Positions 11,314 through 29,243 of a DNA stretch of 64,000 nt are shown here, piece after piece (position 1 is the stretch's first letter; the number at the start of each line of letters is the position of its first letter). The DNA is from Bacteroidales bacterium (GTDB lineage Bacteria; Bacteroidota; Bacteroidia; Bacteroidales; VadinHA17), in contig JBGSLG010000082.1 of NCBI GenBank assembly GCA_041740815.1, forward strand, positions 5,990 to 69,989, given 5' to 3'. A program made the position numbers and the translations under genes. A model generated the notes under the pieces. The model did not search any database. It was not told where the DNA came from and was given only the letters and a program-made list of their open reading frames with translations.

Positions 11314-14124
11314 ATGATCATGAAAAGATTTCTTGTTCTCTCATTGCTCATTGCCGCTGTTCTGTCAGTGACGGCACAGAACACTGCCGACAACACTATT
11401 CCGGTTGATCCTGCATACCGGATCGGAAAACTCGATAACGGCCTCACCTACTACATCAGGCATAATACAGAGCCTGCAGGCAGGGCCAGCTATTACATCA
11501 TCCAGAATGTCGGAGCCATACTTGAGAAGGACAGCCAGAATGGCCTGGCCCACTTCCTTGAGCACATGGCCTTCAACGGAACCGAAAATTTCCCGGGGAA
11601 GAGCCTTCTGAGCACCCTTGAACGCCATGGCGTAGCCTTTGGCTACAACATAAACGCCTACACCAGCTGGGATGAGACAGTATATAACCTTAGTGATGTG
11701 CCGGTGGATAAGCCGGGCCTGATTGATACCTGCCTCCTGATTCTGGCTGACTGGTCTGACTACCTTACACTGGCCGAGGATGAGATAAATAAGGAAAGAG
11801 GTGTGATCATCGAAGAGTGGAGAAGCAGACGTGATGCCTCCTGGAGGATGATGACACAGATGCTGCCAGTTTTGTTTGAGGGATCACAGTATGCTACAAG
11901 AGATATCATTGGAGATACTGCTGTACTCAAAAATTTCAGTCCTCAAACCCTGCGCGACTTCTACCTGAACTGGTACCGCACTGATCTGCAGGCTATTGCC
12001 GTGGTTGGTGATATTGATGTCGATGCCGTAGAAGCAAAGATAAAGGAGATCTTCTCTACGATTCCGGCCATCGAAAACCCGGCACCGAGACCTGAAAACC
12101 TGCTGGTTCCCAAAGTGGGAACAAAATACCTGCTTATCACAGACCCCGAGGCTTCTGAAACTTCTGTCAGCCTGATTACAATCGACCGTGACCCTGATAA
12201 GGCACCCAGAGATATGAAGTATATCCGTGACGGCTATGTAATTGCCCTGATGAACAACATGATGAGAAACAGGTTCAGTGAGATCGTGCAGAAAGGCACC
12301 CCCCCATTCATCAACGGATCTCTTGGTTACGATTCTTTCCTGGCCAGGAATTATAATGCACTCACACTCTCAGCAACCGTACGCGAAGACCAGGAGAGCA
12401 AAGCCCTTGAAGCTGCGCTGACGGAGCTTGAGAGAGTCCGGCAGCACGGTTTTACCAAGGGTGAACTGGACAGGGCTAAGGCAACCATGCTTGCCAACTT
12501 CGAGAACAGGTACAAGCAGAAGGACAAGATCAGCAATGACTCATGGGCATCTTATATCCGTGACCACTTCCTTACAGGTGAGCCTATCCCCTCCCTTGAT
12601 GTACAGTATGAATACTACAAACAGATCCTTCCTCTTATCACCCTCGAAGAGGTCACGGCAAGGCTGAAGGGCCTCATTTCCGGCGATAACAGCTTCATAA
12701 TAGTTGAAGGCCCGGATGACAGAAAGCATCTTTCAGAAATAGAGGTGGCGGATGTGGTCTCAAAGGTCCAGGCAGCAAAGATAGCCCCATACGAAGATAT
12801 CACCGGCGGGACAGACCTGATAGGCGAAACCCTGCCGGGAGCAGCGGTGATCAGCACCATCAGCCTGCCCCTGTTCAGCGCTACTGAATGGACCCTGGCA
12901 AACGGGGCAAAGGTAGTCTTCAGGCATGCCGACTATGAAAAGGACAATGTTACTGTATCTGCATTTGCTTATGGCGGATCATCACTGTATCCCGACTCTC
13001 TTGTTCCGTCAATCACACTTTTCCCTCAGATCATTTCAATGTACGGAGCAGGTGAGTTTGACAACGTTGCCCTGACAAAGATGCTGGCCGGCAAGAAGGC
13101 TTCCGTGTCGCTCGGGCTGCAGGAGACGTTGCAGACAATAACCGGCTCATCAACGCCAAAGGACTTTGAGACCATGATGCAGCTCCTTTATCTTCGCTTC
13201 GCCAGACCTAACTATAACAAGGAGGCTTATGATGCTATCATCGGCCGCTTTACTGCGGTGATCACCGCCATGCAGAAAAACCCTAACAAGATTTTGTCTG
13301 ACAGCCTCTCAATGAACATGACCGGATACCATCCCCGCACCTTCATCATGACTCCTGAGTCAATGAAGCTCATCAGCTATGATAATGTGAACCACATCTA
13401 TGAGACGGCCTTTGACGATGCATCTGCATTTACATTCTTCATCACAGGTAATGTGGAAGAGCAGGTTGCGCGTGATATGGCTGCGAAGTATATCGGCTCG
13501 CTACCCTCAAAAAATATCACAGAGACATGGAGGGACCTTGGAATTGCCCAGCCCGATGGCACCGTACGCAAAGAGATCGCCATCCCGCTTGCAGTACCCA
13601 AGGCAACTGTAGTAATGAACTACACTGCCGGCATGAAATTCAACCCGAAAAACAACCTGATGATGGATGTTCTGAAAGGCATCCTCGACCTTATCTATAC
13701 TGAGAAAGTAAGAGAGGAAGAAGGGGGTACCTACGGTGTCAGCACCAACGCCACATCGTATAGGATACCGGTTGAGAAAGCTGATTTTCTCATAGCGTTC
13801 GAATGCGACCCGGCAAGGGCTTCGGACCTTAAAGAAATAATCTACAGAGAATTACAGGAAATTGCCAGCAACGGTCCTTCACAGGTTAATCTGGACAAGA
13901 GTGTAAGCAACCTCCTCAAAACACGCGAGGAGGAGAAGGAGCACAACAGCTACTGGGCAAGCACGGTCGCCAACTATTATCTCTACGGTATTGATGGCAA
14001 TGATGAGAAAAATTATGCCGGAATACTCAACAGCCTTACTGTGAAAGACATGAAAAAGATGGTTAAGAAATATCTTGCAAAGGCTGATCTGCTTGAGCTG
14101 GTCTTTGTGCCGGAGAAGAAATAA
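11314..14124 (+). CDS. M16 (pitrilysin/insulinase) family zinc peptidase, secreted
   Basis: 936 aa. Signal peptide ..SVTA|Q. Inverted zinc motif HFLEHMAFNGT (HxxEH). Two-halves M16 length. Confidence 0.85.
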   Translation: MIMKRFLVLSLLIAAVLSVTAQNTADNTIPVDPAYRIGKLDNGLTYYIRHNTEPAGRASYYIIQNVGAILEKDSQNGLAHFLEHMAFNGTENFPGKSLLSTLERHGVAFGYNINAYTSWDETVYNLSDVPVDKPGLIDTCLLILADWSDYLTLAEDEINKERGVIIEEWRSRRDASWRMMTQMLPVLFEGSQYATRDIIGDTAVLKNFSPQTLRDFYLNWYRTDLQAIAVVGDIDVDAVEAKIKEIFSTIPAIENPAPRPENLLVPKVGTKYLLITDPEASETSVSLITIDRDPDKAPRDMKYIRDGYVIALMNNMMRNRFSEIVQKGTPPFINGSLGYDSFLARNYNALTLSATVREDQESKALEAALTELERVRQHGFTKGELDRAKATMLANFENRYKQKDKISNDSWASYIRDHFLTGEPIPSLDVQYEYYKQILPLITLEEVTARLKGLISGDNSFIIVEGPDDRKHLSEIEVADVVSKVQAAKIAPYEDITGGTDLIGETLPGAAVISTISLPLFSATEWTLANGAKVVFRHADYEKDNVTVSAFAYGGSSLYPDSLVPSITLFPQIISMYGAGEFDNVALTKMLAGKKASVSLGLQETLQTITGSSTPKDFETMMQLLYLRFARPNYNKEAYDAIIGRFTAVITAMQKNPNKILSDSLSMNMTGYHPRTFIMTPESMKLISYDNVNHIYETAFDDASAFTFFITGNVEEQVARDMAAKYIGSLPSKNITETWRDLGIAQPDGTVRKEIAIPLAVPKATVVMNYTAGMKFNPKNNLMMDVLKGILDLIYTEKVREEEGGTYGVSTNATSYRIPVEKADFLIAFECDPARASDLKEIIYRELQEIASNGPSQVNLDKSVSNLLKTREEEKEHNSYWASTVANYYLYGIDGNDEKNYAGILNSLTVKDMKKMVKKYLAKADLLELVFVPEKK

Positions 14125-14950
14125 AATCACTTATTACCCGGCCCATCTCAGCGCTGTGGGTTCGCCTGTTGTCGACCAGGTCGATGTAACCGGCACCGCT
14201 TATCTGCCTGGAAATATCCATGCCCTCGTCATGGCTGTGGAACCTGTCCTTTGAGGCAACCACAACCAGTGCGGGTACAGTTATCTCACGAAGGCATTCG
14301 GTCATACGGTATCTGCTGAGGTCTCTTATTGCACGGCCGGTACGGACCGGTTCTGCCGAGTCAAGGATCCTGCAGTTAATACGATACATCTCGTAATCCT
14401 CTGCAAGATTAATGCGAAAATTCCTCAGGTACCACTTGAGGAGCGGTTTCACCGGATAGTATACTACCCTTGCTGCCCTTGCAAGTAAAAGCAAAAAGCC
14501 CTGAAACGGGAAGGAACTGTTCGGCTCAATAAGAATGATCTTCTCAGGCTTGTTCTCAAGTAACGGAAAGGCCTCTGCTATGGCTGTCGCCCCCAGTGAA
14601 TACCCTGCCATGACATACCTGGACCCCGGGGGGAAGGTCTGACCGGCAAAATGAACCAGGTCAGAGGCAATCTCCTCAACATTGAACCGGTGATTACTCG
14701 TGATTACCGCACTCTTTTTTTCCCTGGTTTCAATATAGTAAACCGTGTGATTCCTTGTCAGTTCAATTACCGTCTCCCTGAAGTTCTCAATAACTGAGGC
14801 CAGTCCCGGAACAAAAATCACCGGCGGAGCATCAGCCGGTTCGGGAGGCGTGAATATAACAGTCAGCAACTCCACCCCTGTCTGAAGTGGAGAATATTTG
14901 ACCTCATAGGTTGCCCCCGCATGACAGAAGTCAGAGTAATCGAAATCCAT
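14063..14950 (-). CDS. Alpha/beta hydrolase fold protein
   Basis: 295 aa. Nucleophile elbow GYSLGA, PVIFVPGLAS oxyanion region, late HSHDE. The 3' end overlaps the M16 gene by 62 nt. Confidence 0.7.
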   Translation of the reverse strand: MDFDYSDFCHAGATYEVKYSPLQTGVELLTVIFTPPEPADAPPVIFVPGLASVIENFRETVIELTRNHTVYYIETREKKSAVITSNHRFNVEEIASDLVHFAGQTFPPGSRYVMAGYSLGATAIAEAFPLLENKPEKIILIEPNSSFPFQGFLLLLARAARVVYYPVKPLLKWYLRNFRINLAEDYEMYRINCRILDSAEPVRTGRAIRDLSRYRMTECLREITVPALVVVASKDRFHSHDEGMDISRQISGAGYIDLVDNRRTHSAEMGRVISDFISSPAQRPAQADQPLQDIS

Positions 14951-15105: not shown

Positions 15106-15876
15106 ATGAAGCTGGGAATCATTACTGATATCCATGAAAATGTAACAATGCTTGAGGCTGTCCTGAAGCTTGCGGAGGCCAACGGATGTGATGAGCTTGC
15201 CTGCCTGGGTGACATAACAGGGTATGACCGCAGATTCTATAACTACCACTTCCGCAGAAGCGCCAGGCAATGCATTTCACTCATTCGGTCAAACTGCCGG
15301 TGGGTAGTGGCAGGTAACCATGACCTTCATGCGGCAAACAGGCTCCCCTCCTGGTCAAACGGCTTCAAATACCCGGAAAAATGGTTTCAGATGGCCCCCG
15401 CTGAGCGAAGAGACGCCGCTGCAGGATCCGTATGGTCATTTGAAGGGGAAGACCCGAATGATCTGGGAGAGGAGGAAATATCATACCTGAATATTATTCC
15501 TGAATATGTTATTCTGTCTGAGGTCAAGGCAACTCTTCTTCTTTCACACTATGTCTGCCCCGACTTCACAGGCTCAACCACACGCTATATTGAAAGGCAC
15601 CGTCACCTGAATGAACTGTGGAAATTCATGAGCCATCACAAAATCCTGTTTTCCTTGTCAGGCCATTCGCACAAACGAATTGCATACTTCTCGCACCGCG
15701 GACCAATACCATTCCTACGGGCTGTTCATCCTGTTCCCAACGACAGGATCTTTCTCGGTAATGAAATGACGATGATCCTGTTGCCACCGCTCACCGGGGG
15801 CAACGGAAGAACGTCATTTTCGGTTCTTGATACAGACACCGGAATGCTATACCTGATTCATGAAAAAGTCACTTAG
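15106..15876 (+). CDS. Calcineurin-like metallophosphoesterase
   Basis: 256 aa. MKLGIITDIHEN, LGDITGY, VAGNHD, SGHSH motifs (D-x-H / GD / GNH[DE] / GH). Confidence 0.75.
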   Translation: MKLGIITDIHENVTMLEAVLKLAEANGCDELACLGDITGYDRRFYNYHFRRSARQCISLIRSNCRWVVAGNHDLHAANRLPSWSNGFKYPEKWFQMAPAERRDAAAGSVWSFEGEDPNDLGEEEISYLNIIPEYVILSEVKATLLLSHYVCPDFTGSTTRYIERHRHLNELWKFMSHHKILFSLSGHSHKRIAYFSHRGPIPFLRAVHPVPNDRIFLGNEMTMILLPPLTGGNGRTSFSVLDTDTGMLYLIHEKVT

Positions 15877-15885
15877 GAGAATAAT

Positions 15886-18744
15886 ATGAAAGAGCGAGCT
15901 CCAAAAGGTAAAAGAAAGATATTTCTGCTGAAGATTGACCTGCCTGCCATGCTGGCCATTATACTTTTTGCGGGAATGATATTCCTCTACCTTATACCGG
16001 CTTTTGAAAAGGTCATGATGGACCGAAAGAGGAACCTGATCCATGAAATGACTGCATCAGTCTACAGCCTGCTCGAGTATTACCACACGCTGGAGCAAAA
16101 CGGTGACCTTGAACAATCCGAGGCCCGGAAACAGGCAATGGCAGCTGTCAACACAATCAGGTACGGTCATGACCTGAAGGACTATTTCTGGATAACCGAT
16201 AAGGTTCCTGTAATGATAACTCATCCATACAGACCTGACCTCAACGGACAGGATCTCTCAGGGTTTTATGATTCGAAGGGCAAGGCAATTTTTGTTGAGT
16301 TTGTGAAAGCCGTTGCTGATGACGGAGAGAGTTATGTTGAGTATATGTGGCAATGGAATGATGATTCTACCCGCGTTGTTCCGAAATTGTCCTATGTAAG
16401 GTTGTTTGAGCCCTGGGAATGGGTTGTAGGCACCGGGATATATGTGGAGGATGTCCGGACGGAGATACGCAGGATGGAAATCAGAACTCTGGCAATTTCC
16501 GGGGTTTTCGGCCTCGTCATTTTTGCTCTCCTGCTTGCCATCTCACGGCAGAGCCATAAGATAGAACAGAAGAGGAGCCTGGCTGAAGAGGAGCTCCGCA
16601 AATCGAGAGAGCTCTACAGAACACTGGCAGAGGCAGCATCAGAGGGGGTCATAATATGGTCAGTTCAGGGACTCAGGGCAAATAAGACGCTGCTTTCATG
16701 GATCGAACTTAGTGAGGAGGAGATATTGAACCGGCCTCTGACAGATATACTTAGCTCACAGAGTATCAGTGATCCGCATGATCCCGGGAAATTATATGAG
16801 GAACTGTCATCCCGGCAATTTGTCGGGTGCATGCTTAAAACAAAAACCGGAAGAGAGATTTCCTGCCATGCCGATCTGTCAAGAATAACTCTCGGCGACC
16901 TTAATGCAGTGCTTATCGTTGTCCGTCCTGTCAGCAGCCTGTCGTCAACCTCCGGAATAACCCTCCCGATATCGCTGCTTGAGAACACCGCGACAGGGTT
17001 CTTCCGTTTAACCTTTGGGAAAAAACCAAGGTTCATTCACGCTACGGCACCGTTGATAAACTGGCTCGGCTATTCAAACATTCAGGAATTGCAATTACAT
17101 CACTTCGAAACAATTTTTGCTGATCCTCATCAATATGAATACGTCAGTCAGATGCTTGTGGCGAGGAATGGTATTTATAATCATAATGTTATTCTCAGGA
17201 GAAAAGACGGTAATGAGATACGGGCATTGTTAACGCTCGTGGTTACTGACCCCGGAACTGATGAAATATGGAGTGACGGAAGTGTCGAGCTGCTTGTGGC
17301 CCCGCTGTCTGCCACCGGCATTCCTTCTCCCGGATATGAGGCCTTTGGTGCCCCCTACATAAGTGATGTGCCTGTGTCTGCAATCATGAAGCCCGCGGTT
17401 ACATGCCCGGAGAATACCACCATCACACGGGCTGTGACACTGATGAAAGAGAATGATTCAAGCGTGATCGTGGTCCTGAACAGTACCGGGGAACCAATGG
17501 GTGTGGCCGATGCCGGAAGCATCGGATTCGGCATGGCAGAGGGTGCTTCGGCTACCTCTGAGATCTTCAGGTTCATGCATGCGCCACCAGCGTTTGTCAG
17601 TGAAGATGCAAAGATCACCGTTGCAATAGACAGGATCAGGAACAGTTCAGGGTGCCTCCTCGTAATGACGTCAGAAAACAGGCTTGCAGGTGTGATCACC
17701 AATGATGAGCTGGCCCATGCCTCCACAATGACCCCCGGATTGATCATGAATGATATTTCCAAGGCAGGCTCTGTCAACAGCATCAAAAAGATCTGGCAGA
17801 ACAGCCGTAAGGTCTCACTGTCAATGCTTGCCGGCCATGCAGACCCTTATTCGGTCTCTCTTCACATCTCTTCCGTAGCCGATGCAATATGCAAGAGGGT
17901 GATCGATTTGTGCATAGATACTGCAGGAGTGCCTCCATGCCGGTTTTCATTCATCCAGACAGGCAGTGCGGGACGAAGAGAACAAAGCTTTCTGACAGAC
18001 CAGGATAACGCCATTATTTTTGAAAACCTTGCGGGAGATAAGCTGCATGCGGCTGAAGAATATTTCCTGGCACTCGGGAAGAAAGTAAATGAAATGCTTG
18101 ACCAGATCGGCTTTCGTCTCTGCAAGGGAAATAACATGGCCGGAAATCCGAAATGGTGCCAGCCTCTTGATAAATGGAAGGGCTATTTTTCAGACTGGAT
18201 AAGGATCCCAGGCCCATCGGAGATCCTGGATATAAGTATTTTCTTCGACTTCAGACCCTGTTACGGAGATGACTCGCTCAGCAATGAGCTGAGGGAATAT
18301 GTTAAAACCAGCCTCCGGACAAGTGACATCTTCTTCTATCATATGTCGATGGCGCTGAGACAATTCAATCCCTCCCGGACCGCCCTCTCAGAAGAGACAA
18401 CCGACATCAAGAAGATCCTCATGGCACTTACCGGTGTTATCCGGCTCTATGCCCTGAAACACGGTCTTGACGGACTCTCAACCGTTGACAGAATAATTGA
18501 GTTGCATGAAGGAAAACATATCAGTCATGAGCTCCTTCGCGATGCCTTGAGGGCATGGAAAAATCTCGCATATATACGGCTCTCGCACCAGGCATACTGC
18601 ATCAGCAGCGGCAGAGAGCCGGATAACAGGGTCGATTTTAAGTTACGGCACTCAGATATGCTATTACTGGCATCCGGTGCAATTGAAGATATAAATAACC
18701 TTATGCTGAAGGCCGGCAATGATTTCCACACCGTGACAATTTAA
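15886..18744 (+). CDS. Membrane sensor: sCache-like, TM, PAS region, CBS pair, DUF294 nucleotidyltransferase, DUF294_C
   Basis: 952 aa. Cache motif YFWITDKVPVMITHPYRPDLNGQDL...YVEYMWQW...PKLSYVRLFEPWEWVVGTGIYVEDV between two TM helices. CBS pair (VSAIMKPAVTCPENTTI... / ..AFVSEDAKITVAIDRI..LAGVITNDEL). NTase core FSFIQTGSAGRREQSFLTDQDNAIIFEN. C-terminal GNPKWCQPLDKWKGYFSDWI...IFFDFRPCYGD. Confidence 0.75.
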   Translation: MKERAPKGKRKIFLLKIDLPAMLAIILFAGMIFLYLIPAFEKVMMDRKRNLIHEMTASVYSLLEYYHTLEQNGDLEQSEARKQAMAAVNTIRYGHDLKDYFWITDKVPVMITHPYRPDLNGQDLSGFYDSKGKAIFVEFVKAVADDGESYVEYMWQWNDDSTRVVPKLSYVRLFEPWEWVVGTGIYVEDVRTEIRRMEIRTLAISGVFGLVIFALLLAISRQSHKIEQKRSLAEEELRKSRELYRTLAEAASEGVIIWSVQGLRANKTLLSWIELSEEEILNRPLTDILSSQSISDPHDPGKLYEELSSRQFVGCMLKTKTGREISCHADLSRITLGDLNAVLIVVRPVSSLSSTSGITLPISLLENTATGFFRLTFGKKPRFIHATAPLINWLGYSNIQELQLHHFETIFADPHQYEYVSQMLVARNGIYNHNVILRRKDGNEIRALLTLVVTDPGTDEIWSDGSVELLVAPLSATGIPSPGYEAFGAPYISDVPVSAIMKPAVTCPENTTITRAVTLMKENDSSVIVVLNSTGEPMGVADAGSIGFGMAEGASATSEIFRFMHAPPAFVSEDAKITVAIDRIRNSSGCLLVMTSENRLAGVITNDELAHASTMTPGLIMNDISKAGSVNSIKKIWQNSRKVSLSMLAGHADPYSVSLHISSVADAICKRVIDLCIDTAGVPPCRFSFIQTGSAGRREQSFLTDQDNAIIFENLAGDKLHAAEEYFLALGKKVNEMLDQIGFRLCKGNNMAGNPKWCQPLDKWKGYFSDWIRIPGPSEILDISIFFDFRPCYGDDSLSNELREYVKTSLRTSDIFFYHMSMALRQFNPSRTALSEETTDIKKILMALTGVIRLYALKHGLDGLSTVDRIIELHEGKHISHELLRDALRAWKNLAYIRLSHQAYCISSGREPDNRVDFKLRHSDMLLLASGAIEDINNLMLKAGNDFHTVTI

Positions 18745-20000
18745 AAGCGATATATCATACTGAGCAGCATACGCACATTTGCAACATCATGGGTATCGGC
18801 CACCCTTCCGTCAGACTCCATAGTGCCGTAAGCAGCCAGGGTAGTTTCTATCTCTGCTGCAATGCTCAGTTTACCCTCCGTTACAATAAACCTCGGTGAT
18901 ACTCTGAAGAGGTGATCGATGTTGCTGCCCCTGCCGTAAACAGCCCCTGCAACCGATTCCCGTGAGCCAAGGTTTTTGCTGTAGCCGCTAAAGAGACCAA
19001 AAACGGCCTTCTTGCCGTTGGTACTAAGATCAAACCAGAAACCGGCGTTGTTGATTGTGGCCCATTCCCTGATCTGATCGACCGGGTCCGTTATATCAGA
19101 TACCGCATATCCTCCGATCATCATCATATCACTTGCATTCTCGCCATAAACTCCCATTACAGAAAAATTTAACGGCTTTGTTTTCAGCTTAAGAGCGGCA
19201 AAAGCAGCTATACTGCTCACGGTGGCATCTGTTTCAATGTTCGCTGTTGTCCTGATCTCAGGTCTGATAACCTTAAAATCAATACCCCCCCAGGCAGTCA
19301 GATTCTCACCGGCGGGAGCCTTAACCTGTAAATGCAATCCCGGAATTCCACTGTTTCTGATGTATTTGCTGCTGTTGCCATCAGGCCCCGCCGATGTAAA
19401 GTCGCGCTGTGAATATGCAACCATTGTTAAGCTGAACTTGCCCGGGGAGTAAACAAACCTGACCTGCGGATTACGACTGAAAGGAATAAAGGGAACGCCG
19501 GTATTGAAGCTAACGGTGCCAGGAAAATTTTCTGCCGGAAACATCGGATGCCAGTATTGCCCTGCCAGCAGGGTCACCCTGGTCCAGTCCATCTTAACAT
19601 AGGCATGACGAAGCCTGAAACCGTTAAGGTCACTCTCGCTGGTACCAAAAAACTCAGCCTCAATTGCTCCCGAGGTTTTTGCTCCAAAGGCATCAGGACC
19701 AGTGATGTCACTTCTAACCCTTGTCTGTATATTAAGAATATGAAAGGACGGATTGGCATTCAGGTCATTCATCTCTTCATCATACAATACGTCATCAGGA
19801 AACAGGAAAAAGTGTCCCTCCCGCAGTCCGTTAGAGGCAGATGACTGCCTGGTATCATAAAAAATATCAGTCTTGATAAAACCCGATAATTTAATACCCC
19901 AGTTCTGACCTCCATCATCCTGTGCCCCAATCTCTGGCACAAGCACAATAAGAGTGACAATTATTACAGCTGCTCTTTTCATCTTGACTTTATTTAACAT
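18741..20000 (-). CDS. Outer-membrane beta-barrel porin (putative)
   Basis: Signal peptide MKRAAVIIVTLIVLVPEIGA|Q. Alternating beta-strand pattern. C-terminal ..MLLSMIYRF (terminal Phe). The track ORF starts at a TTG (20027). ATG candidates are at 20000 and 19982. Confidence 0.6.
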   Translation of the reverse strand: MLNKVKMKRAAVIIVTLIVLVPEIGAQDDGGQNWGIKLSGFIKTDIFYDTRQSSASNGLREGHFFLFPDDVLYDEEMNDLNANPSFHILNIQTRVRSDITGPDAFGAKTSGAIEAEFFGTSESDLNGFRLRHAYVKMDWTRVTLLAGQYWHPMFPAENFPGTVSFNTGVPFIPFSRNPQVRFVYSPGKFSLTMVAYSQRDFTSAGPDGNSSKYIRNSGIPGLHLQVKAPAGENLTAWGGIDFKVIRPEIRTTANIETDATVSSIAAFAALKLKTKPLNFSVMGVYGENASDMMMIGGYAVSDITDPVDQIREWATINNAGFWFDLSTNGKKAVFGLFSGYSKNLGSRESVAGAVYGRGSNIDHLFRVSPRFIVTEGKLSIAAEIETTLAAYGTMESDGRVADTHDVANVRMLLSMIYRF

Positions 20001-20033
20001 ACGTTTTCTGCCTTTCTGCCGGAACAACAGGCA

Positions 20034-20822
20034 TTAATTCTTATTCGCTTTTTTTCTGTCCGGGGGAAAAAGGGACTCAATGATTCCCGGTTTCAGAGGC
20101 TCTCCACCCAGAAGTACACTCAGGTTGCTCTCTGCAGTTCTGTTTTCCTTCCACAATGTAAGAGCCTTTTCGTAGTAAACCAGCGCTGAATCCTGACTCA
20201 TCAGATGACGGTATGCAGTGGCCTTGTTTGTATAGCTGACAGAGAGCCTCCTGGGTGTTTCAATCCGGGCAAGCAGGACATCCCGGACCCTTTTCCTGAA
20301 AATCCTGTTGAAGTTAAGCCCCGCAAATGCAGGATTCTCCTCATTCATTCCCGGAAGCAGGCGCTGAGCTACGGACTCTTCGGACAGATCTTCCCATTCA
20401 TCGAGCCAACCGGTATATACCGAAATACTGCTGTCACAGTAGCAGACAGAGAGGTCAAGCAGTGTGCTCTTCTCAGAGTCGGTTATAGTACTGTCATACA
20501 GGGCCATCAGCAGCAGACCGCTGCACTTGTTGTTATAGATGACTCCTCTCTCCCACGAAGACTCATAACCAGGGATCTTACTGAATATCTTGCCGGCAGA
20601 ATCAAGAAGATGAAATGAGGCAAAGCTCTCCCTGCCCCCTGATATCCTGTTATATTCCGCCATGAACCATCGCGCCTCTGCTACGCGCGGGTCTTCTGAC
20701 CTGTTGACTCCCCTGTAATAGAAAAAAGCAAAGATCACTGCCAGCAATGCTACCGAAAAAGTGATTGCCAGTAATTTCCTGGTACCGGGTGATATTACAA
20801 TCAGACCTTTAAGACTCATCAA
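20034..20822 (-). CDS. Hypothetical N-terminally anchored protein, translationally coupled to the symporter gene
   Basis: 262 aa. One N-terminal TM (LLAITFSVALLAVIFAFFYY). A TPR-like helix pair near the C-terminus (ATAYRHLMSQDSALVYYEKALTLWKEN). 4-nt overlap with the upstream gene. No family recognised. Confidence 0.5.
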   Translation of the reverse strand: MMSLKGLIVISPGTRKLLAITFSVALLAVIFAFFYYRGVNRSEDPRVAEARWFMAEYNRISGGRESFASFHLLDSAGKIFSKIPGYESSWERGVIYNNKCSGLLLMALYDSTITDSEKSTLLDLSVCYCDSSISVYTGWLDEWEDLSEESVAQRLLPGMNEENPAFAGLNFNRIFRKRVRDVLLARIETPRRLSVSYTNKATAYRHLMSQDSALVYYEKALTLWKENRTAESNLSVLLGGEPLKPGIIESLFPPDRKKANKN

Positions 20823-22510
20823 TTATGAACCTGTTCTGCCAGAAATTTCTTAATCTCGATGGGCGTCGGTTTACTAAGCAGGGATACAACAATGTTGACC
20901 ACTATCGCCAGTGGCGCTCCAAACCATGCAAAATACCAAACATTAAGCCAGTATGCAATAAATGCCTGCCCCGGGAGTGATCCTCCGCTGAGACCAACAA
21001 TAAAATATGTCAGTGAGATTACGGTTACAAGGCTGCCTGCAAACAGTCCAGCTTTCGCGCCGGTCCTGTTTGATCCGCTCCACCATATTCCAAGCAGAAA
21101 TAATGGGAAAATGGTACATGCTGCCATTGAAAAAGCGACAGAGACAAGCTGTGCAATCAGTCCCAGCTTCATCAGTGCCACTATCGTCACGAGCGCGGCC
21201 ATGAGTATTGTACCCAGACGGGCGATTTTCAGCTGCAGCTTCGGGGTTGAGGCAGGATTAATTACCTTGACATACAGGTCATGAGAGAAGGCAGACGCCC
21301 CTGCTACAAGAAGACCTGAGACTGTAGAGAACGCCGCAGATACCGCACCTGCAGCCAGAAGACCAACAACCAGCGAATTGACCCCTCCCAGCTGAGCAGT
21401 GTAAACCACGATGGCATCTTTTGCAAGCACCCCCACCTCAGGATTTGAGGAGAGCAGCTTACCAAATGTTGCATATGCAGGAGCAGTCCAGTAAACCAGG
21501 CATATGAAAAATAGTCCCCATACAACTGACCATCTGGCATCCGTAATTTTCGGTACTACATAGAAGCGCTGTATCACATGTGGCAGACCGGCCGTACCTA
21601 CCATCAGTGAAAAGCATATGGCAATCCACTGGAAGAAGGTTGTGCCGGTTGACGGATCCCAGGGCATGGCAAACTCAGGACTGGGTACTATCGAAAGGTC
21701 GTGGCCATAGGCATTTAGCAGAGCTGCCCCATCAGATATATTGGGGGCTGGAATCCCCTGTACAATGTCCGTCACCGCTGCACCGTATCCAACCTGAGGA
21801 AGGAGCCAGAAGTAATCGAACTTATATGCCAGAATAAATACCGGCAGAAGAAACGAAATCACAATAATGACATACTGTATCTGCATATTCTTCGTAGCAC
21901 CGATCATGCCTGAGATAAGAGTATAAAGCAACACCACAGATGATCCTATTATAACTGCCAGGGTATAGTTGAGACCAAGGATCCATTTGAACATCAGCCC
22001 TATGCCTCCAAACTGTCCAACGCAATAGGCAAATGAGATCAGAATTGTGAATATCGCGCTCACGATCCTGAGATCACGGGAGTAGAAACGGTCGCCAATA
22101 AAGTCAGGAGCGGTATACTTGCCATATTTCCTGATCTGGGCAGCCATCAGTATCAGCAGGAGAACATAGCCTCCTGTCCAGCCTACGACATAGGCCAGCC
22201 CATTGTAGCCGAAACCGTACATCATCCCTGCCATACCCAGTACTGAGGCAGCGCTCATCCAGTTTGATGCAATGGCCATGCCTGACCCTACTTTTGAAAT
22301 ACTCCTTCCGGCAGCATAGTAGTCGGTAGGATCTTTTGCCCGGAAAAATATTCCGACCAGAACAAATGTTATAAGTATCGCAATAAGAATGATGGCAGGA
22401 CCTGTCTTAAAACTCCCCTCCAGTTGGGTCAGATTCTGAGCATTTAATGAAATTGCTCCAGTCAGGAGCAGGATAGATGTGAAATATAACTTTTTCATGT
22501 CTTTCTGCAT
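20819..22510 (-). CDS. Sodium:solute symporter family (SSS) transporter of the DUF4212-partnered (VC_2705 / cation-acetate-like) type
   Basis: 563 aa, about 13 TM helices. DYYAAGRSISKVGSGMAIASNWMSAAS.. and GYVLLLILMAAQIRKYGKYTAPDFIGDRF are typical SSS N-terminal motifs. Preceded by a DUF4212-like gene. Confidence 0.8.
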   Translation of the reverse strand: MQKDMKKLYFTSILLLTGAISLNAQNLTQLEGSFKTGPAIILIAILITFVLVGIFFRAKDPTDYYAAGRSISKVGSGMAIASNWMSAASVLGMAGMMYGFGYNGLAYVVGWTGGYVLLLILMAAQIRKYGKYTAPDFIGDRFYSRDLRIVSAIFTILISFAYCVGQFGGIGLMFKWILGLNYTLAVIIGSSVVLLYTLISGMIGATKNMQIQYVIIVISFLLPVFILAYKFDYFWLLPQVGYGAAVTDIVQGIPAPNISDGAALLNAYGHDLSIVPSPEFAMPWDPSTGTTFFQWIAICFSLMVGTAGLPHVIQRFYVVPKITDARWSVVWGLFFICLVYWTAPAYATFGKLLSSNPEVGVLAKDAIVVYTAQLGGVNSLVVGLLAAGAVSAAFSTVSGLLVAGASAFSHDLYVKVINPASTPKLQLKIARLGTILMAALVTIVALMKLGLIAQLVSVAFSMAACTIFPLFLLGIWWSGSNRTGAKAGLFAGSLVTVISLTYFIVGLSGGSLPGQAFIAYWLNVWYFAWFGAPLAIVVNIVVSLLSKPTPIEIKKFLAEQVHN

Positions 22511-22516
22511 ATTAAC

Positions 22517-23287
22517 TTATTCAACAATACCTTCCTTTTTTAATCGCCATTCTATCAGCCTGTTGTAAACTATACAAAGCACCACAAAAAGAATTAGCAG
22601 AAAGACGGCAGTATAGAAATAGTGAAAAGGAAATCCGAGGAATTTGGTATCAGTAAGCACCGACTGGTTATGAGTGAGATACAATTTCATGAGGTCAGGC
22701 AGACGAGCCAGGGATGGTTCCGTTAATGAAGCAGGGTATTCCTTTTGTAGGCTGGCAGCAAGTATTGACGACTCCAGGCTTGTTGTTGAGAATCCCGTAA
22801 ATGGTTCAAGAATACTGATGAGACTGGTGCTTGCATCCTGTATACGGAATTTAAGGTCCATATACTGCTGGCCCTTCAGGACGGCAATATCCGAATGCAT
22901 CAGCTCCAGCTCTGCAACCTTCTCCTTTACCCGAAAACTAAGTGAGTCAGGCACCATCCGGAATGTGACGGAACTGATTGCCTCAGAGAGGAGTTCCTGA
23001 TCGCTTGCAGCAACGGTAATCTTCCCCTTGACCATAAGGAGTGAGTTTAGGAGCACGCGGTAATCCGCCTGTCCCTCATTCCCTCCCGCAACAGCGGACC
23101 ACTCTGATTCGAAAAGCGTAAGAGCTTTTTCGGGTGTTGGCTTCTCTATTGCCCTCAGAAGGAACTGGAAGCCGAAAACTGCCACAGCCCAGATGGCAAG
23201 CATGGTAAAGATGACATTCCTGTTCTTCTTTCCGTGCAGATTGCGGGGACTGAAAAGACTGAAATTGTACTGATCACTTGATTCCAT
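22517..23287 (-). CDS. DUF4212-like symporter small subunit with a roughly 150-aa inserted extracytoplasmic domain
   Basis: 256 aa. The N-terminus KKNRNVIFTMLAIWAVAVFGFQFLL and the C-terminus FLGFPFHYFYTAVFLLILFVVLCIVYNRLIEW resemble the two hydrophobic segments of the roughly 85-aa DUF4212 family. They are separated by a long soluble insert. Confidence 0.55.
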   Translation of the reverse strand: MESSDQYNFSLFSPRNLHGKKNRNVIFTMLAIWAVAVFGFQFLLRAIEKPTPEKALTLFESEWSAVAGGNEGQADYRVLLNSLLMVKGKITVAASDQELLSEAISSVTFRMVPDSLSFRVKEKVAELELMHSDIAVLKGQQYMDLKFRIQDASTSLISILEPFTGFSTTSLESSILAASLQKEYPASLTEPSLARLPDLMKLYLTHNQSVLTDTKFLGFPFHYFYTAVFLLILFVVLCIVYNRLIEWRLKKEGIVE

Positions 23288-23377
23288 AGATTTTCGGGTG
23301 TTTGGTAATCCGTTAAAGATTAGCTAAAATAGAGATTTTGAGACATGTTAACCCGGGTATAATCTTGCAATGTAACA

Positions 23378-23391
23378 TTGTTTTAAATCAA
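23378..23391. promoter_or_regulatory. FNR/CRP-like palindromic box TTGTT-N4-ATCAA
   Basis: ttgttttaaatcaa has one mismatch to TTGAT-N4-ATCAA. It lies in the divergent region between the symporter operon and the Crp/Fnr gene. Confidence 0.3.
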
Positions 23392-23392
23392 C

Positions 23393-23400
23393 TATATTTG
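23393..23400 (+). promoter_or_regulatory. -7 box (TAtaTTTG) upstream of the Crp/Fnr gene
   Basis: tatatttg lies 88 nt upstream of the ATG at 23488, implying a long leader, so confidence is lower. Confidence 0.3.
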
Positions 23401-23487
23401 AAAATGATAACCGGGTATTGTGGGCCTGTTTCCGGTATTATCAATAGCTTTAAGATGGAGTAATCCAGACTTGTACTATATAACTTA

Positions 23488-24183
23488 TTGAAAATGAGAA
23501 TTACCGGTAAAATGCCCTGTGAGGCTTGCGGGAACAAGTGCGATCTCTATGATGCCTTCAGGAAGTCTGGCAGATTTTTCCCCGAATCAAACATTATACG
23601 GGCAAGGTTCCGTAAGCACGAGATGATTTGCCGGCAGGGTGACAACGTCAGTCATGCCATTTATCTGACCTCGGGAACGGCAAAGCTGTACATTGAAGGG
23701 ATTAATGGTCACAATATCATCCTTTACCTTATGAGACCACCGGCTTACATTGGCCTGCTGTCATTTTTTGAAAGCATTCATTACACTTATTCAGTGACGG
23801 CCATTGAAGATTCACAGGTGTGTATGGTTAAGCTCGAATCCCTTAAAGAGCTTTATCTTGAAAATCATGATGTACTCCTCAGGCTCAACATGGCTTTCGG
23901 TAAATCTGTAGCCCTGATAATGAAAAAGATCATATGCCTCAATCAAAAAAACATCAGGGGGCGCATTGCGGAGAGCCTTTTATCACTGGCTGCCTTTTAT
24001 GGCAACAACAGCTTCACCCTGCCCGTGACCCGGAAAGAACTCGGAGAGATGTCCGCCATCTCGGAGGAAAACACTGTAAGGCTGCTGACCGAACTTAAAA
24101 ATGAAGGCATAATAAGAGTCCAGGGACGTGATGTAACAATAATTGACACCGCCCTGCTTAGCCGGATATCCGATCTGGGATAG
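23488..24183 (+). CDS. Crp/Fnr family transcriptional regulator with an N-terminal Cys cluster
   Basis: 231 aa. N-terminal C-x2-C-x3-C (MPCEACGNKCD). cNMP-binding-type beta-roll (ICRQGDNVSHAIYLTSGTAKLY). C-terminal HTH RKELGEMSAISEENTVRLLTELKNEGII. Confidence 0.8.
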   Translation: MKMRITGKMPCEACGNKCDLYDAFRKSGRFFPESNIIRARFRKHEMICRQGDNVSHAIYLTSGTAKLYIEGINGHNIILYLMRPPAYIGLLSFFESIHYTYSVTAIEDSQVCMVKLESLKELYLENHDVLLRLNMAFGKSVALIMKKIICLNQKNIRGRIAESLLSLAAFYGNNSFTLPVTRKELGEMSAISEENTVRLLTELKNEGIIRVQGRDVTIIDTALLSRISDLG

Positions 24184-24185
24184 CT

Positions 24186-24752
24186 TCATCTATCTCCGAA
24201 AAGAAACTCTTCCAGTATGTCCCAGCATCGGCCGTTGTGCTTAAGCAGAAAAATACTGCCGACGTCAAACTGCCCGGTGAATTTTTCCTCCCTGAACTCA
24301 GGCCAGGCATCACTGAATGCTGTTTTCGTAAGATCTCTCGTAGCAACCGTGATATGGGGCTTAATATCTTTCATTGTATCCTCCTGGCTGAAACCGAGCT
24401 CTGAAATCAGCATATCCCTTAGGCGGCTGTGCAGGCTGCGAACAGGATCAGGGTCGGTAATTTTGATATAAATAACCCTCGGAGGAAAGGCTCCGTAATT
24501 GTCAGTTTGAATACTGAAGCCTTTCTCCTCCAGCGCGAACAACTTCAGGGCCAAAGACAACCTCCCTTCATCTGAGGAACTTCTTTTAAACGGCATCTGC
24601 AGGGTTATGTGTGCCGGCGACTTCAGCGCGTGGGCTGCCCCGTACTCATCACGGATCTTTTGCTTGATCTTCCTGATCTCCTCACACAATTCATGCTTTG
24701 GGATAATTGCTATGAAGTAGATTTCCCTGTTTGTGTCAGGCAATCCTTTCAC
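24186..24752 (-). CDS. 2H phosphoesterase superfamily protein (LigT/ThpR-like RNA 2',3'-cyclic phosphodiesterase)
   Basis: 188 aa. Two H-x-T-x motifs (PAHITLQMPF and KPHITVATRD). GTG start overlapping the nhaA stop (GTGA). Confidence 0.75.
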   Translation of the reverse strand: MKGLPDTNREIYFIAIIPKHELCEEIRKIKQKIRDEYGAAHALKSPAHITLQMPFKRSSSDEGRLSLALKLFALEEKGFSIQTDNYGAFPPRVIYIKITDPDPVRSLHSRLRDMLISELGFSQEDTMKDIKPHITVATRDLTKTAFSDAWPEFREEKFTGQFDVGSIFLLKHNGRCWDILEEFLFGDR

Positions 24753-26791: not shown

Positions 26792-29206
26792 TCATTTCCT
26801 GACAGTGAACGTGACCACGCTCCTGCCACTCCTGCCATCATGGGTGAAGCCTTCAACTATGACTTCATACTCTCCGGTCTCATCAGATGTCCAGAACTCA
26901 ATGCCGCCATCACCCTGGCTGTCCGTCCTTACTGCAGGATTCCAGTAAAGAGTGTTCCTGAGATCGGGAATTCGGCTCTGCCTGAGAACATCAGTTGAGT
27001 AATCCGGAGCTGCCACCTCATAGCTGTCAAGCAGCATATCGTACTCCTGCCTGAAAATTGACCTGTCAAATTCCAGCAGACTCAGATCACCCTTGCCTGA
27101 CACTACGTTTATGATCCCGTCAAGGACTACGTCACCGACAAAATACCGGGTATTGAGTACCTCTATTCTTTCAATTTCCTGGGAGCGGATCTCAAGAACC
27201 TTTTCGAGGTCATATACCGGCACTCCGTCTATAATTACAAGCGGCGGTGTGGTGAATGATAACCCGGGGTTCCTGTTGACCAGACTGAGGCTGCTTCTCT
27301 CGTTCCTGCCCGCTGATGAAAGACCAGGTACTATCTCCTTGAAAACCTCACGGAGTGTTGTCAGCTCTATATATTCCGAGAGAAGTATGGTGCGGTCAGG
27401 CTCACCAAAGAAATCGGGGAAGACCTCGGAGCAAAGCATGACCGCCTTTTTCTGGAGGAAGGGATAATAAATATTCCTGACCTGCATAGCGATAATAGCA
27501 TTGTTCAGCTCCTCAAGGCGTGCAGTGTCCGGATAAAACGGTCCGGGCTCATGCTCAAGCCTCATCTCAAAGAGGAAGGGATCATTCAGGTCAACGTAAT
27601 AGCCGTTGACCTCGGGAGAGAGACGCTGGATGACAATCTCCCTTTTGCCATACTCCCTGACGGGAAAGCTGAATTCTCCGTTAGGACCCGTCCGGGTAAA
27701 ACCGCACCGGGCCGTCCTGCCTACAAACGAGAGCGAAAGGTTCTCCCCGGCCAGAGGAGCGCCGGTAGTTCTGTCCCTTACAAAACCGCTGATCAGATGA
27801 CCCTCAGGCTCAGGCAGGTATACAAATCCGGACTCTTCCCCGCTATTCCGGAGAAGATCTCCGTTCTCATCACAGAAGATCAGATAGTCATTTACATCAG
27901 GTAATACCAGGTCCGTGCTGAATGCCTGCAGTGAGGGCAACTGAACCTGTCTGACCATATTGCTGTAATGGTTATCTGTTGTAAGGATGGGTTTAACAAC
28001 CGCTACAGACAGGTTGGTCTCAAGACCTTTGCCTTCACCGTCAACCGCCTTTATTACAATCTCAGTCTTCCCACGGGGTGCAGTCGGCGCGCTGCTGATC
28101 TTAACCTCATAGGTAATCTCCGGACTCCTGTCGTTGTAATACCATTTTGATGCCAATTCCTCCCCGTAACCGTCAGTCAGTATAATCCTTGCAAGACCGG
28201 TAGGGAGGCCCTTCCCGTCCATTGTAATGACCGGATCATTTTCAAAGAAAACCTCCCTGGCCGTGCTCCCTCCTGAAACCGGGGAGTAGACTGCCCTGAC
28301 TGTACCACCGGGAGCCCTGTACCCTTTGCTGCCAGACTTGATAATTATCTGAAGGTCCTTATCCGGGCCTGCGGAACTGACGGTAAAAGTCAGCCCTGTC
28401 TCCCTGACGGGCGGCAGCGGAAACCTTCTGCCTGTACCCTTGCCGTCATAGGCCAGCAGGAAAAGAGGCTCTGCATCTCCGGGTGTCAGCGTGAAGAGAC
28501 CTGTACCGTACCTGTCAGTGGTGACCCTCGCAAGTGTGTCCCCTGTAACGTTCAGCACAATGGCATTTGTAATAACCGGATCTCCGTTGCTGTTAAAGCA
28601 CCGGATACCCATACGTGTCTGAACACCTGACGTTAGAGATCCGGTCTCCGGATAAAACCGCACACTGTCAGCCTGATGGTCTGATGGCGGGATCCTCAGC
28701 CTCGAGAGACTCTCAAAAGGATTGATGACGGAGATTTTTTTATAGGAGAAGAGAGCCTGCGGGTAATTCTTCATCAGGTTGGTGAATGACCGGATAAAGT
28801 AACTGCCGGTCCTGAGCGTATCAGGAATCCGGAACTCTCCGGCTCCTGTAATACCGTCTGTTCCGGTTCTGACCTGAACCACGGGCGTCCTGTAGCTGTC
28901 AAGAAGGTCAACATATAACACCTTGCTGATGGTTCCGGGCTTGCCTGACAGCCTGCCAAATTGCATTGTCCGGAAATAGACTGACTCCCCCGCAACGTAA
29001 ATATCCCTGTCAGTCTGAATGTAAATCTTCTCAAAATTGCCTTTCCCAGCCGCACCATCACCCCCGGGCTCCGAAGAGACCTGTGCACGCAGTGATGCCG
29101 GACCATTACGACCAGGCTCCGAAGAGACCTGTGCACGGAGTGATAGATGACAGAACAGGAGAGCCGCAAAAATAAAGATAACTCTGCAGCTGCGTAACCT
29201 TGCCAT
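26792..29206 (-). CDS. Large secreted protein: MG2-like N-terminus, CarboxypepD_reg-like domain, TonB-plug-like domain, no beta-barrel
   Basis: From the ATG at 29206: MARLRSCRVIFIFAALLFCHLSLRA|Q. YIQTDRDIYVAGESVYFRT (MG2-like). ISGFVRDRTTGAPLAGENLSLSF..GPNGEFSF (CarboxypepD_reg-like). PPLVIIDGVPVYDLEKVLEIRSQEIERIEVL..DGIINVVSGKG (plug-like). The track start at 29383 would overlap the DUF4249 gene. Confidence 0.6.
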   Translation of the reverse strand: MARLRSCRVIFIFAALLFCHLSLRAQVSSEPGRNGPASLRAQVSSEPGGDGAAGKGNFEKIYIQTDRDIYVAGESVYFRTMQFGRLSGKPGTISKVLYVDLLDSYRTPVVQVRTGTDGITGAGEFRIPDTLRTGSYFIRSFTNLMKNYPQALFSYKKISVINPFESLSRLRIPPSDHQADSVRFYPETGSLTSGVQTRMGIRCFNSNGDPVITNAIVLNVTGDTLARVTTDRYGTGLFTLTPGDAEPLFLLAYDGKGTGRRFPLPPVRETGLTFTVSSAGPDKDLQIIIKSGSKGYRAPGGTVRAVYSPVSGGSTAREVFFENDPVITMDGKGLPTGLARIILTDGYGEELASKWYYNDRSPEITYEVKISSAPTAPRGKTEIVIKAVDGEGKGLETNLSVAVVKPILTTDNHYSNMVRQVQLPSLQAFSTDLVLPDVNDYLIFCDENGDLLRNSGEESGFVYLPEPEGHLISGFVRDRTTGAPLAGENLSLSFVGRTARCGFTRTGPNGEFSFPVREYGKREIVIQRLSPEVNGYYVDLNDPFLFEMRLEHEPGPFYPDTARLEELNNAIIAMQVRNIYYPFLQKKAVMLCSEVFPDFFGEPDRTILLSEYIELTTLREVFKEIVPGLSSAGRNERSSLSLVNRNPGLSFTTPPLVIIDGVPVYDLEKVLEIRSQEIERIEVLNTRYFVGDVVLDGIINVVSGKGDLSLLEFDRSIFRQEYDMLLDSYEVAAPDYSTDVLRQSRIPDLRNTLYWNPAVRTDSQGDGGIEFWTSDETGEYEVIVEGFTHDGRSGRSVVTFTVRK
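29048..29143 (-). repeat. In-frame 2 x 48-nt tandem duplication at the signal-peptide cleavage region
   Basis: Units 29096..29143 and 29048..29095 encode SLRAQVSSEPGRNGPA and SLRAQVSSEPGGDGAA. I count 7 mismatches in 48 nt. Confidence 0.85.
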
Positions 29207-29243
29207 GAAGTGTGTGTCTGGTCCTTTCATACGGTCATACATA

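Follow-up and report, generated by a model that had tools for sequence, protein, structure and literature searches.

The window considered here is a 64,000-nucleotide stretch of Bacteroidales contig JBGSLG010000082.1 (positions 5,990 to 69,989 of the forward strand; GenBank assembly GCA_041740815.1). Between its positions 15106 and 24183 it holds seven open reading frames (ORFs; Table 1): a metallophosphoesterase and a membrane-bound receptor fused to a DUF294 nucleotidyltransferase ("the sensor") face a transporter operon, which is followed by a divergent Crp-family regulator. All seven lie where a reading made from the sequence alone had put them, and Pfam and NCBIfam profiles bear out its domain calls, DUF294, DUF294_C and the Cache fold included. 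The unit is real, conserved and uncharacterised, a variant of the known association between COG2905 proteins, exonucleases and symporters. It appears to form, as the sequence-only reading had it, a nucleotidyltransferase-based control circuit for carboxylate uptake. A more specific proposal, tentative and somewhat short of an even call, is that it is a reversible protein-nucleotidylation switch, with a writer and an eraser, which would act on the symporter and so tune small-carboxylate uptake post-translationally.

Table 1. Features of the unit (positions in the window)
Feature	Position	Strand	Basis and remarks
Metallophosphoesterase subfamily A (label of this analysis), 256 aa, without membrane segment	15106..15876	+	Pfam Metallophos E 8e-12; proposed eraser
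Receptor-nucleotidyltransferase (sensor), 952 aa, membrane	15886..18744	+	Pfam sCache_2, PAS_9, CBS pair, DUF294, DUF294_C; proposed writer
Predicted outer-membrane channel, DcaP-like by lead only	18741..20027	-	ESM Atlas; without Pfam or NCBIfam match
TPR-like helper with membrane anchor, 262 aa	20034..20822	-	One anchor and weak TPR match
Sodium:solute symporter, VC_2705 (TIGR03648) subfamily, kin to ActP and MctC, 563 aa	20819..22510	-	SSF and TIGR03648
DUF4212 small subunit, enlarged, 256 aa	22517..23287	-	DUF4212 split by insertion; TIGR03647
Conserved 24-bp element, divergent promoter	23368..23391	.	Includes FNR-type inverted repeat 23378-23391
FNR-like Crp-family transcription regulator, about 229 aa	23488..24183	+	cNMP_binding and HTH_Crp_2; optional part of unit

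The 9-nt gap between the phosphoesterase and sensor genes and the overlapping stop codons of sensor and channel (TTAA, 18741-18744) are as previously described. The 4-nt overlap is kept in 37 of the 38 close relatives that have the porin, and is an inherited layout of one clade; close relatives of the locus are labelled Bacteroidales. The facing arrangement of sensor and transporter operon is also confined to the window's clade: other lineages have a single operon running from small subunit to sensor, with the porin upstream in the same operon. No terminators stood out at the locus, and a sigma-70 promoter scan was uninformative for this phylum. The genome has one DUF294 gene.

The sensor runs from a first transmembrane segment (TM1, residues 19-37) through a periplasmic sCache_2 domain (residues 44-196, E 2e-36) and a second segment (TM2, 201-219) to two PAS domains, a CBS pair, DUF294 (residues 642-776, E 1e-38) and DUF294_C (E 4e-17; all Pfam); the second PAS falls under Pfam detection in the window and is detected in relatives. 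The best 120 of 574 matches in a protein search with the sensor all combine Cache and DUF294, at 51-95% identity. The solved structures closest to the Cache domain are 4k08 and 5g4y, that is, Adeh_3718 with acetate and PscD (Brewster et al., PMC5062169). PscD binds glycolate, acetate, propionate and pyruvate, with contacts at Y90, H103, Y143, K156, W92, W145 and F126 (PMC5062169). The sensor residues Y100, H113, Y153, K167, W102, W155 and F136 are identical to those of both PscD and Adeh_3718 at all seven positions, and each is conserved in 64/64 relatives, where Y153 and W155 belong to the pattern that retrieved the loci and the other five are independent of retrieval. The Cache part scores best with the MctS and CtpM models (MctS model E 1e-21, NCBIfam). 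Since all seven contact residues are present, the earlier assignment to the C2/C3-carboxylate type holds, and to judge from the pocket the ligand is very probably a small carboxylate of the C2/C3 class, such as acetate, propionate or pyruvate. A Cache sensor is likewise linked with a monocarboxylate symporter in MctS and MctP. The first CBS nucleotide motif of the sensor lacks its Asp in the window's clade (the Asp is retained in 63 of 84 distant rows), so that energy sensing may be weakened there. At two loci the sensor is split over two ORFs (L061, 9299-12684; L019, 183-3044) and at a third (L113) it lacks the Cache part, through either assembly error or decay.

A structure model of sensor residues 497-952 (pLDDT 91.7) has its best fold matches in GlnE domains (1v4a, Z 27.9, rmsd 4.7, 328 residues aligned; 3k7d, Z 27.0, rmsd 3.2, 316 aligned), and also matches the AMPylase domain of DrrA (6yx5, Z 26.6, rmsd 3.2, 293 aligned). 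Among the matches listed, only GlnE domains and DrrA have high Z scores, the other rows being mostly CBS domains; GlnD is not among them, and no cyclase or CD-NTase comes near the GlnE and DrrA scores. The catalytic residues G693, S694, R697, E699, D707 and D788 are present in 121/121 sequences and D705 in 120/121, and the core shows the G-S motif, D-x-D, third carboxylate and helical C-terminal domain of the GlnE/GlnD/DrrA branch of Pol-beta-type enzymes. By its DUF294 profiles, its catalytic residues and its fold, the nucleotidyltransferase is thus intact. GlnE domains and DrrA act on protein-NMP (nucleoside monophosphate) bonds, and the sensor is probably an active transferase with a protein target. 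DUF294_C itself has been grouped with GlnD and GlnE (PMC3710099).

What lies beside the sensor was compared in two sets of loci. Set 1 comprises 69 genome loci found with the sensor, holding 63 Cache-type genes; it is rich in close relatives and is the source of the profiles used. Set 2 was drawn by Pfam model alone from 301 genomes of the order, of which 66 have DUF294 (64 strongly); its 60 regions, from 59 of the 64 strong genomes, hold 62 genes, 53 of them Cache-type, 8 soluble cNMP-type and 1 other. In set 2 a hydrolase lies within 1.5 kb of, or is fused to, 43/53 Cache-type genes (phosphoesterase A in 34, phosphoesterase C, convergent and downstream, in 8, a fused exonuclease in 1), and an exonuclease accompanies 8/8 soluble genes. 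The slot is filled in 50/63 genes of set 1, by phosphoesterase A (38), a downstream phosphoesterase B (9) or a fused exonuclease (3); the B form occurs in Thermodesulfobacteriota, Spirochaetota, Riflebacteria and one Polyangiaceae genome. Sampled slot hydrolases were confirmed by Pfam. With only nine Metallophos and two RNase_T matches in the window's 3.07-Mb genome, a linkage of 43/53 is far above chance. No RNase T/DnaQ-like exonuclease adjoins the window's sensor, the two RNase_T matches lying on other contigs.

Two hydrolase types never occur together within 1.5 kb of any of the 116 Cache-type genes; in one genome (G064) phosphoesterase C adjoins the sensor and phosphoesterase A lies elsewhere. 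The proposal that the phosphoesterase occupies the exonuclease's place is therefore upheld: there is one hydrolase per slot, and the types exchange. The case is stronger than originally put: in some relatives the exonuclease is part of this very sensor, as a fusion. These fused exonucleases (L051, L065, L067, L144) keep the full DEDDh motif and are placed before TM1, on the cytoplasmic side, which would combine two activities in one protein, as in GlnD or GlnE. In phosphoesterase A the metal ligands D8, H10, D36, GNH70-72, H148, H187 and H189 (D-x-H, G-D, G-N-H, H, H-x-H) are invariant in 45/45 aligned sequences, and 42 of 50 genomes with this enzyme also carry DUF294. A quick tree was made of 94 enzyme cores after 28 close relatives had been removed. 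In it, phosphoesterase B, phosphoesterase C and the fused exonuclease form a clade each (of 8, 8 and 5 rows respectively, with support 99) and A is scattered; the replacements were thus few, not dozens.

A further candidate eraser, here only a guess, is a DUF6915-like domain, rich in His and Asp and about 120 residues long, with which the sensor of one locus starts (L064, 9596-10000; E 3.5e-4, below cut-off). Such a fusion stands ahead of the sensor in 11 proteins (P0121-P0131), and its 854-aa members match the length of two Vibrio proteins of Cache_2-PAS_9-DUF294-DUF294_C architecture that have been classed as "No_output" (Upadhyay et al., supplement of PMC4822843). A phosphoesterase C elsewhere in the genome, serving sensors that lack an adjacent hydrolase, was considered and rejected: a homologue at 40-42% is present in 5/5 such genomes, but homologues occur in 47/301 genomes overall, many without DUF294, and only the subclade at 55% or above tracks the sensor. 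An exonuclease search in these genomes gave mostly long proteins and was not used as evidence. At two loci (L163, L165) the channel and phosphoesterase A are still adjacent and no DUF294 or linked symporter was found; these may be remnants.

One alternative is that the transferase makes a small nucleotide messenger, which the hydrolase degrades and the CBS domains or the Crp-family protein read. Cache-PAS receptors usually have kinase or cyclase outputs, calcineurin-like proteins include cyclic-nucleotide phosphodiesterases, and the soluble relatives have a cNMP-binding domain. This is nevertheless improbable, given the fold matches listed, a Crp-family protein without cAMP residues and a first CBS motif without its Asp; moreover, the same slot is occupied by a DEDDh exonuclease, an enzyme that normally requires a terminal nucleotide, not a ring. 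DEDDh nucleases and calcineurin-like phosphoesterases can each cut an aryl-NMP phosphodiester such as tyrosyl-AMP, and one shared NMP substrate therefore fits the exchange better than a cyclic messenger does.

It is quite improbable, too, that the transferase tails and the hydrolase trims mRNA or tRNA ends, thereby controlling transporter expression: no RNA-acting transferase is among the fold matches listed, the Pfam scan gave no nucleic-acid-binding domain, and the enzyme is membrane-bound. The partner is nonetheless RNase T-like in many systems, an RNA lariat debranching enzyme is the best solved match of phosphoesterase B (E 8e-4), symporter expression has been speculated to depend on a nearby gene (Price et al., bioRxiv 072470), and mRNA decay has been suggested (Henriquez et al., PMC9927547). 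Finally, the clustering might reflect a shared carboxylate regulon, with a non-catalytic sensor and a phosphoesterase that has a separate job; of the 50 genomes with phosphoesterase A there are indeed eight in which no DUF294 was found, and the transferase deletions so far described have little or no phenotype. Catalytic residues invariant in 120-121/121 and unrelated hydrolases that swap in one slot, one of them fused to the sensor, make this very improbable.

The target of a writer-eraser pair is the harder question. Symporters are the constant neighbour: among well-flanked Cache-type genes (at least 5 kb on both sides), one lies within 8 kb in 32/32 in set 1 and in 24/32 in set 2. By genome, a linked symporter subfamily (the window's type, or an ActP-like type with DUF485) is present in 52/64 with DUF294 and in 12/237 without, and 49/51 Cache-type DUF294 genomes have one or other subfamily; these counts include kin, the genomes are not independent, and the Fisher value is accordingly given no weight. 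The predicted linkage of sensor to carboxylate-type symporters is, within the order over which co-occurrence was run, conserved. Two genomes (G029, locus L134; G159, locus L150) carry tandem operons for two different symporters; a separate Cache-DUF294 gene follows each operon, and one phosphoesterase is shared.

Published genetics concern the soluble form. In Pseudomonas putida, growth on pyruvate is impaired by deletion of pp_0353 (exonuclease) or actP-I and not of pp_0354 (transferase), and on 20 mM acetate neither the pp_0353 nor the pp_0354 deletion matters (Henriquez et al., PMC9927547). A 2026 preprint repeats the pyruvate pattern, PP_0353 loss resembling that of actP-I or yjcH, and suggests protein modification for PP_0354 and RNA or DNA cleavage for PP_0353 (10.64898/2026.09.07.749794). 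Pflu5625 of Pseudomonas fluorescens belongs to the CrbS/R regulon, is described as having no phenotype and was predicted to nucleotidylate proteins (Sepulveda and Lupas, PMC5715377); for some DUF4212 and DUF485 genes, Price et al. (bioRxiv 072470) report cofitness with a neighbour entered as "COG2905 (RNAse T domain protein)", a label that could denote either gene of the pair. The pyruvate pattern is what a writer-eraser switch would lead one to expect, because an unopposed writer would shut the transporter. Whether the target is the symporter complex is an even call.

The same chemistry might instead be directed at an enzyme that activates acids, for example acetyl-CoA synthetase, at a regulator such as the FNR-like protein, or at the sensor itself, which is unlikely, if well worth keeping in view. 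DUF294 genes do adjoin synthetase genes: soluble cNMP-CBS-DUF294 and exonuclease genes follow them at three loci (L107, L129, L159), and a Cache-type gene does so at one (L149). At L129 the synthetase is doubled (1272 aa) and preceded by a lone receiver gene. In P. putida, propionate growth is slowed by PP_0353 and PP_0354 deletions and not by actP-I or yjcH deletions (10.64898/2026.09.07.749794). Both the propionate result and the presence of synthetase genes next door leave room for a wider range of targets; against them, deletion of PP_0353 is harmless on 20 mM acetate, where acsA-I is essential (PMC9927547), and the FNR-like gene is absent from 15/32 and 27/32 well-flanked loci of the two sets. 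A predicted complex of symporter and CBS-transferase scored 0.00 and was used neither for nor against.

Several observations weigh against the symporter-directed switch. The hydrolase counts are not independent, because each replacement amounts to about one event on the tree; 10/53 (set 2) and 13/63 (set 1) Cache-type genes have no adjacent hydrolase; one sensor clade has no phosphoesterase A genome-wide (0/5 genomes), and the enzyme has its eight genomes in which no DUF294 was found, as the linked symporters have their twelve. Soluble relatives in this order adjoin acetyl-CoA synthetase genes, and since the propionate phenotypes are not shared by transporter mutants, the transporter cannot be the sole target in P. 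putida; the P. putida genetics, moreover, come from the soluble cNMP type in Pseudomonas, which lies outside the present family. A shared acceptor tyrosine, sought in both symporter subfamilies and the small subunits, gave several candidates, none of which was singled out. In the papers found, no DUF294 activity, nucleotide or target is shown; a search mostly blind to subscription papers found no biochemical study of DUF294 proteins and no account of the Cache-type unit or of a writer-eraser reading.

If the symporter-directed switch is nevertheless taken as a working model, a C2/C3 acid would cross the outer membrane by the channel and bind the periplasmic sCache_2 domain, a step strongly suggested by residue identity. 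By way of TM2, PAS domains and CBS pair, the signal would reach the GlnE/DrrA-type nucleotidyltransferase. If active, this enzyme would modify the symporter or small subunit with an NMP, AMP on a tyrosine being the likeliest form. The phosphoesterase would strip the NMP again, a task that would fall in other lineages to another phosphoesterase or a DEDDh exonuclease; their exchange is observed, and the chemistry is presumed. The modified state would be OFF, so that abundant acid throttles its own uptake: this polarity at high ligand, by analogy with the P. putida genetics, is doubtful and the weakest step. As a separate layer, the FNR-like regulator would control how strongly the transporter operon is transcribed, probably in response to oxygen or redox state.

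The sequence-only reading had taken the regulator to be the cNMP-binding function split off as a gene of its own, and on this point it is not supported. Cysteines C11, C14, C18 and C112 are each present in 28/28 aligned regulators, and the cAMP residues of CRP are absent (L90 at Glu72 in 28/28; Y99/T100 opposite R82/S83). The regulator scores 52 bits against the 228 cut-off of the E. coli-type Fnr model, and stays below every NCBIfam cut-off. What we take to be FNR-like features are the three N-terminal and one internal Cys, an E-x-x-x-R recognition helix and a TTGAT-N4-ATCAA-type box; the repeat at 23378-23391 matches consensus at 9/10. The 24-bp element, which was derived from the same promoters that were counted, is present in 27/30 transporter promoters with the regulator gene and in 0/48 without it (four too-short regions excluded; two loci apparently one genome; one split gene counted twice), and the general FNR consensus by itself, allowing no more than one mismatch, in 22/30 and 3/48. 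The regulator gene is preceded by what is presumably a -7 promoter box of the Bacteroidetes type (23393-23400), directly adjoining the element. The first 10 bp of the element (23368-23377), an extension of the FNR-type box, form a short inverted repeat with the box end, are conserved as much as the box and may be a second site. Because the cAMP residues are absent, FNR features are present and the gene occurs in only 17/32 and 5/32 well-flanked loci, the regulator is not a lost cNMP domain: it is probably, on its residues and box, an optional transcriptional layer for the transporter operon, sensing redox state or oxygen.

Within that operon the symporter matches SSF and scores 488 bits with TIGR03648 (cut-off 321), its relatives being 66-97% identical; the small subunit scores 36.6 bits with TIGR03647 (cut-off 26.05), adjoins the symporter as the family pair requires, and carries an insertion of about 180 residues that separates the two membrane helices. 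The TPR-like helper occurs only with the DUF4212/TIGR03648-type symporter. The channel has no Pfam or NCBIfam match; its ESM Atlas lead scores 0.98-0.99, with DcaP on 14-55% of cluster members, and its single-sequence structure model (pLDDT 32) is unusable. Its start probably lies about 15 codons later than that of the ORF, to judge from relatives of about 412 aa, and a channel is found within 8 kb of the sensor in 26/32 and 15/32 well-flanked loci of the two sets. The earlier statement that none of these families has a defined function goes too far as regards the transporter: Price et al. (bioRxiv 072470) identify DUF4212 and DUF485 as transporter subunits and describe fitness phenotypes of the symporter mutants on lactate, D-alanine and pyruvate.

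The flanks of the unit depend on lineage. Upstream are an M16 peptidase (11314-14124, +) and an alpha/beta hydrolase (14063-14950, -), neighbours that vary by lineage; in eight close relatives (L003-L007, L012, L013, L018) a gene of 353-404 aa without Pfam match stands directly 5' of the phosphoesterase, and it is absent from the window. Downstream, a LigT-like 2H phosphoesterase (24186-24752, -) is convergent on the regulator and follows an NhaA antiporter; considered as a second eraser, it was rejected, being near the unit in close relatives only, with glycosidase genes intervening. Large, probably secreted proteins lie further on (26792-30467, -), in a flank that is again lineage-dependent.

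DUF294 is widespread and has been without a substrate since protein nucleotidylation was predicted; Pseudomonas papers of 2017, 2022 and 2026 call its role unclear. Unlike the soluble form, the Cache-type unit has a ligand that can be read, a partner hydrolase in single copy and a transporter as its constant neighbour, and these make the writer-eraser idea directly testable. That idea would also read a published oddity simply: mutants without the exonuclease resemble transporter mutants, and those without the transferase do not. The widest form of the proposal, possible and still doubtful, is that Cache-PAS-DUF294 proteins are a class of transmembrane receptors with protein nucleotidylation as output, switching SSS transporters off and on by direct action, with four or five unrelated hydrolases (three phosphoesterase subfamilies, DEDDh and perhaps the DUF6915-like domain) as de-nucleotidylase. 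If true, kinases, cyclases and chemoreceptors would be joined by a further class of receptor output, SSS transporters would come under covalent control, and the DnaQ-like proteins encoded next to ActP, annotated as DNA polymerase III epsilon, would be protein de-AMPylases.

Each part of the unit has known counterparts. The likeness to the sCache_2 receptors PscD, McpP and Adeh_3718 and the kinase MctS lies in the seven pocket residues and the MctS model match; their output is chemotaxis or a kinase, whereas that of the window's sensor is a nucleotidyltransferase. With GlnE, GlnD and DrrA/SidM the core shares a G-x-x-G-R-x-E-x5-D-x-D motif and, for GlnE and DrrA, the fold, and fused writer-eraser forms are known both in GlnE/GlnD and, as the fused exonuclease, in the Cache-DUF294 family; the differences are an identity of 12-13%, an eraser that is a separate, exchangeable gene, and an extracytoplasmic input. 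Compared with FNR, the regulator has a C-x2-C-x3-C spacing, a box with a 10-bp conserved extension and a putative Fe-S cluster. The transporter resembles DUF4212-TIGR03648 symporters (Sama_1522/1523, Psest_0346/0347) and YjcH-ActP in matching family models above cut-off, and differs from them in a small subunit three times the usual size and in the added helper and channel. The closest counterparts are the COG2905-type cNMP-CBS-CBS-DUF294-DUF294_C proteins with an RNase T/DnaQ-like exonuclease (PP_0354/PP_0353 of P. putida; Pflu5625 of P. fluorescens; the CrbS/R, or MxtR/ErdR, regulon), which share the CBS-DUF294 core, a hydrolase partner, the link to DUF485-ActP or DUF4212 symporters and that to the use of acetate, pyruvate and propionate. 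The sensor has their CBS pair followed by DUF294 and DUF294_C, above Pfam cut-offs; in place of a soluble protein with an N-terminal cNMP domain it is a membrane protein that begins TM-sCache_2-TM-PAS-PAS, so that its input is periplasmic. Its partner is mostly a metallophosphoesterase, and the unit adds a channel, a TPR helper, an enlarged DUF4212 subunit and an FNR-like regulator.

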